Counted from the first letter of the stretch, positions 24,396 to 32,000 are shown. The stretch is DNA of 32,000 nucleotides from Breznakia sp. PF5-3 (GCF_029504745.1 NZ_JAQFIQ010000002.1:60001-92000); one strand, 5' to 3'. Translations and numbers: made by a program. Notes: a model not told the origin generated them from the letters alone.

Positions 24396-24479
24396 ATGAA
24401 AAAAAGTGGCTTTTTGAAATTATTGATTTGTATAGCTGGTGTACTTATTTTTGGACTTGGTACAAGTGCAGTAAGTGCA
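24396..24479 (+). other. Sec-type signal peptide of the giant protein
   Basis: MKKSGFLK (basic n-region), LLICIAGVLIFGL (h-region), GTSAVSA|DE (AxA-like cleavage site). There is no lipobox. Confidence 0.8.
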
Positions 24480-30400: not shown

Positions 30401-32000
30401 TGTTAGTGGAACGACTACTTCAAATGTTATAAAGAAGAAAGTAAAATCGTTGATTGGAAAAGGTAGAGTAAATACAAAGAATAATATCGTCGTAAAAGTT
30501 GACAGCGAAGAAAAGATTTTAGCTATCGTTGTTGCAGTAGGTGCTAGTAAAAGTGTAGCAGTACAGGGTTCTGTACCAGTTACAATTATTGAAAATGATA
30601 TTTTGGCATCTATCGATGGTGAAGTAATAGCTACAGATATCAGTATTTCGGCGAAAGATAAAGTCGATGCTGATGTATATGCCGGAGGCATTGGTGCTTC
30701 TAGTAGTGTAGCGATTGGTGCAGCAGTTAATACCTTATATATACAAGGAAAAGTGATTGCTCAAATTGCAGACAGTGCAAATATAACAGCTGCAAATTTA
30801 AGTATTATTGCAGATTCAGAAAACAACATTCTTACAACCTTAATTAGTGGTGCTGCTTCAGGAACTGTAAGTGTTGTAGGTGTTGTGAATACAGTATTAA
30901 TGAGCCAACAAACAAAAGCAGTGCTTGGTAACTCTGTTATTTTAAATATTCAAAAAGATATCTTATTGAAAGCTAATGCAGTGAATGACTTTACTTGTTA
31001 TGTTGGAGCATTATCAGCAGCTGGTACAGTTGCGGTAGGTGCTTCTGTAAATACGGTTAAGTTAGAAAATATCGTTAGCACAGTAATTGGAAAAACAGTT
31101 GAGATAATCCAAAATACAGATACTAACATTGGTAATCTAACGTTACTTGCAACAGGAAAAGACAGTTTCTTTGGTGTTGTTGCTGGAATCGCAGGTTCTG
31201 GTAGTGTGGCTGTTAGTGCATCAGCAAATACGATTTTGAATACATCTAAAATAACTACGGAAATAGGAACAGATAGTAACATCAAAATGGGTGGTAGCCT
31301 TTATGTGAAAGCGTACCATGATTTAATGATGAAATTATATCTTGGAACAACAGCTGTATCTGTATATGCAGGTGTGGGAACATCCGTATTAGTAGTAGTT
31401 AGTGAAGTAGCCGTAGCTAATAACGTTGGTGATTCAGCAATTTTAAATTTCACAGGATCAAAAACGAATACAGCTACAAATGGTATTACATTCGTAAGTG
31501 CCTCAGATGTAGATATTATGAGTGTTGTCACAAGTGCAGCAGGTGGAGCAGCAGGTGTATCACCAACAAGTGCAACCTTTGTACTAAGTGGTTCAACGAA
31601 AAATGTAATTGGTGATAATGCATCATTTACAACCGATAAAAAAGTTAGCATTGATGCAAATAGCAATACAACAATAGCACCATATATCGGTTCTGCAGGA
31701 GTTGGAGTGGCAGGTATTGGAGCTAGTGTATTAGTCATCAATAGTAGTAAAGAAACATCAACTTATATTGGGAAATCAGCAAGCATTAAAGCAGTGGAAG
31801 GAATTTCAATAAGTGCAACTTCTAAAAATTCATTCACAGGTTTAGTCATTGGTTTCTCAGGTGGTGCAGTTGGTGTAGCAGCAAGTGTGAATGCAATGAT
31901 TATTGAAGATATTGTGAATGCTGTTTCTGATACAGGAAGTTCATTAATATCTAGTAATGGTGCAGTTAGTGTACTTGCAAAGAGCACGCAAAATTATGAT
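24396..32000 (+). CDS. Giant secreted repeat protein, 3'-partial (at least 2535 aa in window); LktA-like filamentous adhesin/leukotoxin-type repeat architecture
   Basis: I translated the whole frame by hand: ATG 24396 (RBS aaaggagg 24382-24389) to nt 32000 with no stop codon. The N-terminus is a Sec signal peptide. Composition is rich in A/G/V/S/T/N/I. Degenerate ~53-aa repeats run from about nt 26560 onward. The ORF is not in the supplied track, presumably because it has no stop inside the window. Confidence 0.9.
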   Translation, partial: MKKSGFLKLLICIAGVLIFGLGTSAVSADEITLSDTPQSDTPVVTVQSDIKKFDVNGTEYTTLNEAVNAVNTASGDVVFKVPAGTHGTLSIDNVAISKLTIEPTSAGAVSFTDISFKNMKTNLNIDLKSITVNGKINLENASGLVFNATTAQFSTVAIHGMENTTLDFSSRVGAVNFILSGSIGGSVINGGNGNDVFTLNEVVATDLVLDGKAGTNKIVSNISGELTFEATNIKSTSGDIAFANISNVEDTASDHSIVTLPDSDNAIAFTSDAGNIKYDLGGVGFVLNGTGKITVLGGSGNDTITLNGIANPNLTQFSVDGGNGNDKISVVSSITLSNADVKLVGEQIEIVGAKGNIFNILAKSLTLEAKNNASSASKVESKVTIRYAKIQVSADIRILSNGSQLVDIDGQGTSVVKNIDTKSSIELESVEFIASNINISSAAISEISGDDTKSRAVNNISNKSHLSIFGDSSFRATNNLMFSSVSKILSAIEVGAGEIPISIAMNSIVSEALLTIDGNTKLNSSSVAMNVDNIIDSKVLADGSRAPSSQSEASASGAFIAIHNIRQITKGDIGENVKIGGINTPIAKDVSLKVNASLKLDTQAKSIGDGYKGSTGTNISLQGVVQEIKDLLKLTPFADIAAILSDDMLTILGSVNASSETALTKQMVGAFAFNNVKMTTSAKYKADSYITGNLNVISNASINTETIADGSAKVDVGEAVIPIGIGVAVALHKVDYENTANVAVSTLRAKDVNVLANESANTNTSKIVAKAGVNRGDFGIGGAFGITIYNITTKATIDSSQIQATGNVNVITNDKHDVSIDADCSSDKAVGAGIAVLIFEDIAMSQILDSVKILSVKDLNVLTNSISNTILDVKSGGNGGLSIAPGVAVNINLNDILSQCLAATVATGDINVKSVSKKTRKTTSASNLVDKGGIGATVSLVINIDKNKALLGGKVSGREVHVHATSHHRSDAYATASPEGESDPDPDAKETSPEDLVNKLRGAVDQLMGNEGDDKLSDKFSADMSTQEGKIQVAGAVIVVYLETKNEAIIENAEITADKVEVLAKEAVAIYNFANANVSDGVQTGAATAVIVLVSDIQNKAQIKSNVTMNVKALSVVACGDTLEKVNELAKDDNDNKTVTNDKNTFANVSLSGAGASKNGIAGAVVLVFVDQAYDASVDGKVTVLKQDGNTPKIEIKADLKERFYSRGFSEAKYVAGGNNNSTNQSKSKGIAPSFVMNYCSTTANAILASNGAIKTATGAKADVLIQTTFDSSIDAEAEAGSGEGKTATDITIDGAVVLNLLSRDISAKILAGGVVNVTGTLSVLQKTTSTTNAKVHAGAEAKATAVGAAVAVTYFKAKYAAIVSGSVSISGKLSVISEAKTIDIVEATGTSKGVSEKDFKDKFKDFDLKKVLKGESFGSGESTKTGDTVAEFTGGKADQNTSSSILGATNVTTMEPDTNGKTNPKKGEQVAIAAAVAVTILQHDVLASMDGIAKAGEIEIKAINDNNFKSYNGSKASSNGTAITLSVAVAILGSKTEAYGNMMESLGDITISASGSINMDETFKNAVTLLAVGMASVGKEGELSLAGSIAFLKYENVLKAMILENAEVKANGKVSVTAIENNKLAAKAWNYAGAGNSNAVAVGTSFAMIFASSTVQAIIAKGAKLELDALYVEAKRKRVNPNELSFNFEYKEGMFDDFDAFDYIDITNFLASNNYYIEVLGASNASKGNLALQGSFGILMFDNITEAKLEAGVEVTAINDITIKADSDVNVKVITGGVANANQVGIGLNTGTIVDESKVTASIGNAVKLTTNTGGVLIDASSRQDYLVVSVAASKATTAGIAGVVNVILSKNKVNAIIGNQATVIAKKDIQVLAKNDSSFKGISLGATKGGKAGVGCTAAVILIENETNASVGENVTLKADGNIIVKATSSEDLAFIITSAAVSDNVAIGLSGAYAQIESSTIASIGDGHDVTALNLNIETASKTVSKSINGGVTAAGTVAVSGTTTSNVIKKKVKSLIGKGRVNTKNNIVVKVDSEEKILAIVVAVGASKSVAVQGSVPVTIIENDILASIDGEVIATDISISAKDKVDADVYAGGIGASSSVAIGAAVNTLYIQGKVIAQIADSANITAANLSIIADSENNILTTLISGAASGTVSVVGVVNTVLMSQQTKAVLGNSVILNIQKDILLKANAVNDFTCYVGALSAAGTVAVGASVNTVKLENIVSTVIGKTVEIIQNTDTNIGNLTLLATGKDSFFGVVAGIAGSGSVAVSASANTILNTSKITTEIGTDSNIKMGGSLYVKAYHDLMMKLYLGTTAVSVYAGVGTSVLVVVSEVAVANNVGDSAILNFTGSKTNTATNGITFVSASDVDIMSVVTSAAGGAAGVSPTSATFVLSGSTKNVIGDNASFTTDKKVSIDANSNTTIAPYIGSAGVGVAGIGASVLVINSSKETSTYIGKSASIKAVEGISISATSKNSFTGLVIGFSGGAVGVAASVNAMIIEDIVNAVSDTGSSLISSNGAVSVLAKSTQNYD
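24963..24989 (+). other. RTX-like nonapeptide GGNGNDVFT
   Basis: Matches the GGxGxDxUx calcium-binding repeat consensus. Residues 190-198 of the giant protein. Confidence 0.5.
25284..25310 (+). other. RTX-like nonapeptide GGSGNDTIT
   Basis: Matches GGxGxDxUx. Residues 297-305. Confidence 0.5.
25356..25382 (+). other. RTX-like nonapeptide GGNGNDKIS
   Basis: Matches GGxGxDxUx. Residues 321-329. Confidence 0.5.
26560..32000 (+). repeat. Array of degenerate ~53-residue (~159-nt) protein-level tandem repeats inside the giant CDS
   Basis: Anchor motif V-A-[VI]-x-[GAS] followed by ...N-T/I...[AS]-x-[IV]-G...[IV]-x-[AV]-x-A. Consecutive anchors fall at residues 1948, 2001, 2054, 2105, 2158, 2212 and 2271, giving spacings of 53, 53, 51, 53, 54 and 59. 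Earlier units are visible from about residue 725. The nucleotide sequence of the units is diverged. The start coordinate is approximate. Confidence 0.75.

Follow-up and report, generated by a model that had tools for sequence, protein, structure and literature searches.

The tandem repeat curated in NCBIfam as LktA_tand_53 (NF012206) has as its namesake LktA of Fusobacterium necrophorum, the product of the lktBAC operon. LktA, a protein of ~3241 amino acids, is a passenger of the type Vb secretion system (T5bSS) that is exported via the POTRA-containing LktB and acts as a secreted cytotoxin. A second described protein with repeats of this kind is Cag_665 of Chlorobium chlorochromatii, a giant symbiosis protein of 20,647 amino acids whose LktA-like repeats are described as forming a laminated beta-sheet of two layers, with an FHA-type parallel beta-helix after them (bioRxiv 10.64898/2026.03.19.712371). 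Here we describe a giant gene with LktA-type repeats on the plus strand of a 32,000-nucleotide stretch of DNA from Breznakia sp. PF5-3 (GCF_029504745.1, NZ_JAQFIQ010000002.1:60001-92000), the whole of which was analysed and is called the window below. We read its product, with a probability of roughly 0.6, as a regulated, membrane-anchored cell-surface fibre or adhesin. The host is an unclassified Breznakia of the Erysipelotrichaceae (Bacillota), a family of monoderm bacteria that have no outer membrane.

The link to LktA is made through the curated 53-residue repeat common to both. NF012206, a 'tandem repeat-containing filamentous protein' model, matches the window part of the giant protein at 131.9 bits against a cutoff of 50 (E = 6.7e-39), over 14 stretches, so that the profile search named as a check in an earlier, sequence-only reading of the window (hereafter the original prediction) was productive; the orthologue in Breznakia pachnodae scores 193 bits. 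Both are very large, Ala/Gly/Val/Ser-rich beta proteins that are extracellular, in the Breznakia case by prediction. Unlike LktA, the Breznakia protein is nearly twice as large, has neither a two-partner secretion (TPS) domain nor a TpsB neighbour, comes from a Bacillota host, and carries a plain Sec signal and a predicted C-terminal membrane anchor, whereas LktA is released as a toxin. Set beside Cag_665 by description, it likewise has N-terminal LktA-like tandem repeats followed by a C-terminal half of a different beta repeat; in both proteins the LktA-like part is predicted to be regular and all-beta with no solved homologue, and both have calcium-type motifs. However, Cag_665 belongs to a diderm green sulfur bacterium, is 3.4 times longer, and is annotated with filamentous-haemagglutinin motifs in its distal half, of which Pfam and NCBIfam find none in the Breznakia protein, while the latter adds a central helical hairpin and the C-terminal transmembrane anchor.

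The original prediction had placed a 7.6-kb uninterrupted open reading frame (ORF) at ATG 24396, and translation bears this out: 2535 codons run without a stop from 24396 to the window's last base at 32000. The other five frames over the same interval contain 38-299 stops each, with longest open runs of 45-253 codons, and in DNA of 33% GC a chance origin of the 2535-codon run is excluded. The frame had been called invisible in the ORF track, which is true for a trivial reason, as it runs off the window end and the ORF lister omits such frames. The count of thirteen minus-strand ORFs (each of at least 60 amino acids) between 24356 and 31987 was exact; all are antisense to the giant gene and are rejected as genes, since they lie opposite a conserved sense frame. 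The amino acid bias that had been remarked on, towards Ala, Gly, Val, Ser, Thr, Asn and Ile and away from Cys, Trp and Pro, matches the computed composition of the window part (A 11.8, S 10.7, V 10.3, G 9.1, I 9.0, T 8.2 and N 7.9%, with C 0.3, W 0.04 and P 0.9%).

The protein was also expected to be longer than the window, as proved to be the case. The Logan contig SRR35245974_35, reached through the neighbouring TPR protein with its start corrected, equals the window over 11,071 nt with 0 mismatches, and the complete gene measures 18,411 nt and encodes 6136 amino acids (locus L003, 3467-21877). An exhaustive representative search recovered a deposited sequence (P0001) that shows no difference from the window and its extension at any of the 3277 residues that can be compared; it corresponds to MDF9823781.1 and three further accessions, under the names 'hypothetical protein [Breznakia sp. 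PF5-3]' or 'beta strand repeat-containing protein'. The mature chain would have 6108 amino acids, a mass of ~635 kDa and an isoelectric point of 5.6. The gene is monocistronic. A strong bidirectional terminator hairpin with a 12-bp stem stands 7 nt past its stop codon, and the next gene, beyond the terminator, encodes a convergent M42 peptidase. The parts of the gene, in window coordinates, are as follows.

24396-42806 (by extrapolation), plus strand: the full giant gene, L003 3467-21877
24396-32000, plus strand: the first 2535 codons of the 6136-codon gene, or 41% of it, from the open frame and the identical contig
24396-24479, plus strand: Sec-type signal peptide, residues 1-28, with a predicted cut after AVSA, read from the sequence
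24480-26555, plus strand: N-terminal region, residues 29-720, beta-rich and genus-restricted
26562-32000, plus strand: LktA-type 53-residue repeat array, from residue 723 to the window end, by NF012206 and our own repeat model

That this is a real giant gene is argued by its evolution as well as by the four GenBank accessions and the contig. A genome scan found one relative with a syntenic orthologue, B. pachnodae DSM 16784 (NZ_JAUSUR010000001.1), which is 59% identical over all 2535 residues and whose frame stays open for at least 5866 codons (at least 17.6 kb), to the end of the locus as retrieved (L001). The ratio of non-synonymous to synonymous substitution rates (dN/dS) between the two species is 0.34 overall and 0.26-0.55 in every region, with dS of ~1.1, and on these ratios the gene is under purifying selection. 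Repeat collapse during assembly is no concern, because the DNA of the gene contains no tandem repeats and no direct repeats of at least 30 nt worth noting.

With our own repeat hidden Markov model (HMM), 25 copies are found within the window and 38 over the entire chain, arranged head-to-tail at spacings of mostly 51-56 residues, and BLOSUM autocorrelation over residues 720-2700 peaks at 53-54. Altogether, the array spans residues ~720-3650 with ~55 copies and is regular from residue ~1584. The fold was approached with an alignment of 19 rows, made of in-register blocks of the giant protein and of distant relatives, with B. pachnodae left out. The AlphaFold2 model of residues 2046-2491, a segment in the 400-600-residue range that had been proposed for structure prediction, is confident and all-beta (predicted local distance difference test, pLDDT, 90.0; predicted TM-score 0.88). 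Each modelled repeat consists of two ~20-residue strands joined by a turn of 2-3 residues into a hairpin, plus a third strand of 4 residues that nearly runs on into the next long strand, and the array as modelled is a continuous antiparallel meander of very long strands. With two strands (~1 nm) per repeat, the LktA-type part would be ~50 nm long. The earlier idea of a beta-solenoid or fibre protein therefore stands in part: the chain is all-beta and repetitive, but its repeat is a hairpin of two ~20-residue strands and not a ~20-residue coil. A Foldseek search of the model against 350,542 PDB chains returned nothing at E <= 0.001, the best match having E = 2.3 and TM-scores not exceeding 0.19, with generic beta-helices as the matches; Foldseek against BFVD gave nothing significant, and sequence and profile searches of the PDB with the giant protein were empty.

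At the N-terminus, MKKSGFLKLLICIAGVLIFGLGTSAVSA is followed by the predicted cut and then DE, and shows by eye the n/h/c layout of a Sec signal. By hydropathy, strong hydrophobicity is confined to two segments of the protein, residues 4-28 and residues 6099-6126, and the first of these agrees with the classical Sec signal of the original prediction, here too as a predicted feature. The second belongs to the C-terminus, where a hydrophobic helix at residues 6104-6124, ILIPLIIGIILLLLAIGYLIY, is followed by a basic tail of 12 residues, RKRKKKLNLVTS; the helix is a predicted membrane anchor. The anchors that had been suggested for the 3' end (LPXTG, SLH, choline-binding or cell-wall-binding domains) were not found there, the transmembrane helix with its basic tail standing in their place, and Pfam detects no SLH, choline-binding or other cell-wall-binding domain in the whole protein. 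Taken together, the LktA_tand_53 match, the Sec-type signal and the C-terminal anchor favour the earlier proposal of a surface fibre, adhesin or toxin-like protein.

Pfam has no family anywhere in the protein at E <= 1 and none in residues 1-720 at E <= 0.01. In the exhaustive search, residues 1 to ~550 were matched only by the query's own full-length sequence (P0001; 88% by the measure of that search), and for all other matches the best stretch begins between residues 553 and 708; the N-terminal region, residues 29-720, has no homologue outside Breznakia on this search. It is 46% identical to its B. pachnodae counterpart and is likely the distal tip of the fibre. Beyond the repeat array, residues 3991-4060 (L003 15434-15646) form a two-helix hairpin amid an otherwise all-beta protein. 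No other part of the protein comes close to the degree of constraint on this hairpin (76% identity and dN/dS of 0.07 against B. pachnodae), which is also the sole confident part, at pLDDT 71-81, of a single-sequence AlphaFold2 model of residues 3990-4460. It is highly charged, with 10 K and 9 E in 70 residues, contains a tryptophan, and has no homologue in the distant relatives. It is followed by a beta-rich mid-domain of globular-looking composition (residues ~4061-4450) and by a second, irregular beta-repeat region (residues ~4450-5800) for which self-BLAST and autocorrelation give no strict period, although units of ~72 residues, 'IGSxxxxL…IYL…L.I..I.A…V.L.A', can be made out by eye. A C-terminal module (residues 5800-6090) carries further GGxGxD-type motifs.

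A motif search finds five such GGxGxD-type motifs in all, each isolated, at residues 190, 297, 321, 5851 and 5940. Two metagenome scans were made for relatives of the giant protein, the first of which was empty and the second of which gave two weak matches. One of these is a high-GC metagenome protein of more than 1766 amino acids (L006, 136-5433) that contains ~100-residue GGxGxD modules and has no LktA-type repeats. Its modules are similar to residues 23-249, 281-329 and 5972-6011 of the giant protein, at the motif level only, the two proteins being otherwise unrelated. This likeness suggests that both termini of the giant protein carry the same generic module of the calcium-binding type.

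The genes next to the giant gene provide the second line of evidence, as the original prediction had taken it to be probably the output of adjacent regulatory genes. The features in question, again in window coordinates, are these.

20720-21442, plus strand: LytTR-family response regulator of 240 amino acids, by Pfam Response_reg and LytTR
21423-22772, plus strand: histidine kinase of 449 amino acids, by Pfam HATPase_c_5 (GHKL) and hydropathy
22796-24226, minus strand: divergent tetratricopeptide repeat (TPR) protein of 476 amino acids, by Pfam TPR families, with its true start at ATG 24226
24298-24327, plus strand: candidate LytTR operator, TAAAGTGTA-N12-TAAAGTGTA, by sequence and conservation
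24351-24356, plus strand: -10 box TATAAT, from the sequence, in a block, TACGnTATAATTAAAGTAG, that is conserved in B. pachnodae
24382-24389, plus strand: ribosome-binding site (RBS) AAAGGAGG, 6 nt before ATG 24396 and conserved in B. pachnodae

Hydropathy gives the kinase 6-7 N-terminal transmembrane segments. In the TPR protein it gives a single one near the N-terminus (residues 20-45), preceded by a lysine-rich start, and this layout predicts an extracellular TPR domain. The response regulator, kinase, TPR protein and giant protein are 60, 60, 58 and 59% identical to their B. pachnodae counterparts, whereas the flanking PFK and PtsI are 96 and 91% identical; the four genes can be regarded as a fast-evolving unit in a conserved neighbourhood. 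The same four-gene cassette is, on sequence comparison, conserved, and recurs beside a giant protein of only ~30% identity. In that locus, on an uncultured low-GC metagenome contig (L004, with the giant protein P0017), there are a LytTR regulator (E = 1e-25 to that of the window), a HATPase_c_5 kinase of the same type, and a membrane-anchored TPR protein of 449 amino acids (E = 3e-29) that is divergent from the giant gene.

Several observations concern the cassette and its surroundings in their own right. Alignment of window positions 16822-24226 with the B. pachnodae locus shows a sharp divergence step inside the syntenic block, and the cassette would appear either to evolve much faster than its surroundings or to have been replaced as a unit. 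Between ptsI and the regulator gene, a 59-amino-acid ORF (20396-20575, plus strand) with its own RBS and a terminator-like hairpin resembles a small winged-helix protein, and B. pachnodae is without it at that place. B. pachnodae has an extra 530-amino-acid ABC-F-type ATPase between the kinase and TPR genes (L001 6751-8343), which adjoin in the window species (22772-22796). Elsewhere in the window, and unrelated to the giant gene, a T-box leader (RF00230) at 6846-7085 on the minus strand scores 125.9 bits against a gathering score of 93 and lies directly upstream of an asparagine-synthase ORF (5228-6808, minus strand); the Rfam scan of the window gave no match besides this leader, and no tRNA genes.

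The RBS with its 6-nt spacer, already seen in the original prediction, is in place, and a -10 box precedes it, but a sigma-70 scan finds no complete promoter and there is no usable -35 hexamer. Upstream of the -10 box, two copies of TAAAGTGTA (24298-24306 and 24319-24327) form 9-bp direct repeats with a 21-bp phase, and 23 nt separate the second copy from a perfect TATAAT downstream. Allowing up to 3 mismatches, such a pair occurs once in the window against 0.13 expected. B. pachnodae keeps the pair with equal phase and at an equal distance to the -10 box, the surrounding sequence having diverged. Sites for LytTR regulators of the AgrA/ComE type consist of two 9-bp direct repeats with a 12-bp spacer before a weak promoter, and the TAAAGTGTA pair is accordingly a candidate site for a LytTR regulator. 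With this candidate operator and the recurrent cassette, the view of the giant gene as the output of the adjacent regulatory genes gains support. A single half-site, TAAAGTGTT, is also found immediately ahead of the RBS of the TPR gene, within the 5' leader (24240-24248, minus strand); it could be due to chance, as the window has 17 copies with one mismatch and 17 are expected.

Outside the genus, the closest relative is the lineage of P0002 and P0017 (L004), at 30% identity. It resembles the Breznakia protein in its LktA-type repeats and its Sec signal of Gram-positive style, has homologues of the mid-domain and the distal region, and shares the LytTR regulator, HATPase_c_5 kinase and divergent membrane-anchored TPR protein. 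It differs in having the TPR, regulator and kinase genes in one operon and an Ig-like/SpaA-type domain near the N-terminus of the giant protein, and its giant gene appears fragmented in the assembly and ends before the 3' end. Four consecutive same-strand pieces of 584, 6873, 420 and 1135 amino acids (L004 8163-35301) make up that gene, and one piece contains X residues; the breaks are probably due to misassembly or frameshift errors, and the gene itself would then have more than 9000 codons. The second relative, P0022/P0011 from a metagenome-assembled genome of an uncultured Bacillota (L005), also has LktA-type repeats and a distal region homologous to Breznakia residues 4451-5800 (BLAST E ~1e-8). 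Unlike the Breznakia protein, P0022 has a TPS domain (71.9 bits) and adjacent ShlB/POTRA_2 and OmpH genes, which make it a true two-partner system, and has no hydrophobic C-terminal anchor. Its locus, L005 10001-29151, encodes an LktA-repeat protein of 5706 amino acids with the TPS domain, then the ShlB/POTRA_2 TpsB and then OmpH/Skp; a complete two-partner system of this kind implies a diderm member within the Bacillota. The order of repeats followed by distal region is common to P0022 and the P0017 locus, and the distal homologies were seen by BLAST and by phmmer with --nobias and missed by phmmer with its bias filter.

How a regulated, membrane-anchored surface fibre might be made and displayed can be pictured from these elements. 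The chain would be exported N-terminus first through Sec, and the C-terminal helix would act as a stop-transfer anchor, which would leave the whole 635-kDa chain on the outside, held to the cell by its C-terminal end. The second beta-repeat region would then form a proximal stalk, and the LktA-type ribbon together with the fast-evolving N-terminal region the distal part, a placement that suggests adhesion to gut surfaces or to other cells. Transcription would need activation: once phosphorylated by the polytopic kinase, the adjacent LytTR regulator would occupy both TAAAGTGTA repeats and turn on the promoter, which has no -35 hexamer. The membrane-anchored TPR protein may be a dedicated extracellular partner for folding, anchoring or signalling, standing where diderm relatives have TpsB and periplasmic chaperones. 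No dedicated export genes were found among the genes of the window or of the 31.4-kb contig.

A number of points weigh against this reading or limit how far it can be taken. The signal peptide and the topology are read from sequence and hydropathy, and the evidence for the anchor comes from the protein of Breznakia sp. PF5-3, the B. pachnodae sequence ending at residue 5866. The operator is assigned by its layout, and no convincing phased repeat of this kind precedes the regulator operon or occurs in the L004 locus. The two-layer geometry and the length of ~50 nm derive from the secondary-structure string of the model and from a preprint; the single-sequence model of the mid-region, residues 3990-4460, reaches a pLDDT of only 44; and the distal, mid-domain and N-terminal regions have neither a reliable model nor a Pfam match. 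The role in adhesion is drawn from architecture alone, and LktA, the sole member of the repeat family that has been studied experimentally, is a secreted leukotoxin.

This last point leads to the main rival, placed ahead of the sortase substrate, the TpsA passenger and the artefact discussed below, namely that the protein is an LktA-like cytotoxin or membrane-damaging factor. It would be made as an anchored precursor, released by proteolysis, and act on insect cells or competitor microbes, with the conserved amphipathic helical hairpin as its membrane-active element. Besides the precedent of LktA, the strong constraint on this confidently helical hairpin and the presence of an S8 peptidase gene in the related L004 locus speak for such a role. 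Yet with its 10 K and 9 E the hairpin falls below transmembrane hydrophobicity, no toxin domain emerged from Pfam, NCBIfam or PDB sequence searches, and the Breznakia locus shows no evident protease or site of release; Breznakia species are insect-gut fermenters. A cytotoxic role after proteolytic release is considered unlikely. A CdiA-type or other polymorphic toxin was rejected on separate grounds, as the C-terminus is the predicted anchor, the next gene is the convergent M42 peptidase past the terminator, and the locus contains no pair of toxin and immunity genes.

It is still less likely that the protein is anchored by a sortase, that is, covalently linked to peptidoglycan through a non-canonical motif. 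Giant adhesins of the LPXTG/sortase class do resemble it in their N-terminal Sec signal, long repetitive extracellular body and C-terminal helix with basic tail, and with 18.5 bits the tail passes the cutoff, 15.9, of the LPXTG_anchor model TIGR01167. Directly before the helix, in exactly the place of LPXTG, stands LHSRG (residues 6099-6103; L003 21761-21775). However, the TIGR01167 match is confined to model positions 13-34, which correspond to the hydrophobic helix and charged tail after the motif position and do not include the motif itself. LHSRG has neither the Pro nor the Thr on which sortase cleavage depends, no LPXTG-like motif turned up near the C-terminus in a regex search, and there is no sortase gene in the locus. 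The protein also differs from these adhesins in having no Ig-like, Cna-B or usual stalk domains. A canonical LPXTG protein is thus ruled out by the LHSRG in place of the motif, notwithstanding the helix and charged tail, and LHSRG, helix and basic tail together may represent a decayed sorting signal.

A very improbable alternative is that the protein is a true LktA/TpsA member, a T5bSS passenger whose TpsB is encoded elsewhere in the genome. The LktA_tand_53 repeats are shared, and the Bacillota relative P0022 is a genuine TpsA with TPS domain, adjacent ShlB/POTRA and OmpH. Against this, no TPS domain (PF05860) is present in residues 1-720, the same search finding that of P0022 at 71.9 bits as a positive control, and no TpsB gene (ShlB/POTRA, Omp85) occurs among the genes of the window or of the 31.4-kb contig, whereas in the control locus L005 it lies directly downstream of the giant gene. 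A C-terminal transmembrane anchor is also incompatible with release through a TpsB barrel, and the Erysipelotrichaceae host is not expected to have an outer membrane to hold one. The TpsA passenger was accordingly rejected on the missing TPS domain and TpsB neighbour, the outer-membrane point resting on taxonomy. An RTX adhesin of the type I secretion system was rejected as well: the GGxGxD motifs are only five and isolated, there is no HemolysinCabind (PF00353) match and there are no exporter genes, and the C-terminus is a transmembrane helix. Finally, a decaying pseudogene, a collapsed-repeat assembly artefact or chance-open non-coding DNA is practically out of the question, as no point was found in its favour and the four accessions of the 6136-residue product, the mismatch-free contig, the long open orthologue with dN/dS of ~0.34 throughout, the lack of DNA repeats, and the conservation of RBS, promoter elements and terminator all speak against it.

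If the reading as a regulated, membrane-anchored surface fibre or adhesin is taken further, its parts can be joined, tentatively and with a good deal of doubt about the whole, into an LktA-type fibre cassette of the monoderms' own that has not been described before. In such a cassette, Sec export would be combined with a tether by a helix resembling a decayed sorting signal; the membrane-anchored extracellular TPR protein would hold or fold the emerging 635-kDa chain in place of TpsB and chaperones; an AgrC/AgrA-like pair would switch the system on by an extracellular cue; and the repeat would represent a two-layer, long-hairpin fold class without a solved representative. The gene as such is not new, the repeat family being curated and the protein deposited. 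As far as the literature searched goes, what is new is the monoderm architecture of Sec signal and membrane anchor, the TPR/LytTR cassette, the operator-like element, and the confident model of a fold without a solved counterpart.

For annotation, the gene is 2.4 times longer than the window shows, and its product would be better named LktA-repeat surface protein than hypothetical protein. Residues 2046-2491, a short fragment with pLDDT 90 and no PDB counterpart, are an obvious target for structure solving. Giant repetitive surface proteins are common, and this locus is nonetheless well defined and testable. LktA-type repeats have so far been considered almost only as the two-partner-secreted leukotoxin of Fusobacterium, and here the same repeat block is used in a Bacillota lineage where two-partner export is not expected to exist, with a partner set that differs from that of LktA and is conserved: Sec signal, predicted membrane anchor, TPR protein and LytTR system. 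Breznakia is cultivable, and the locus offers a genetically tractable case in which to study the export, folding and anchoring of a 600-kDa beta fibre by cells that lack an outer membrane.

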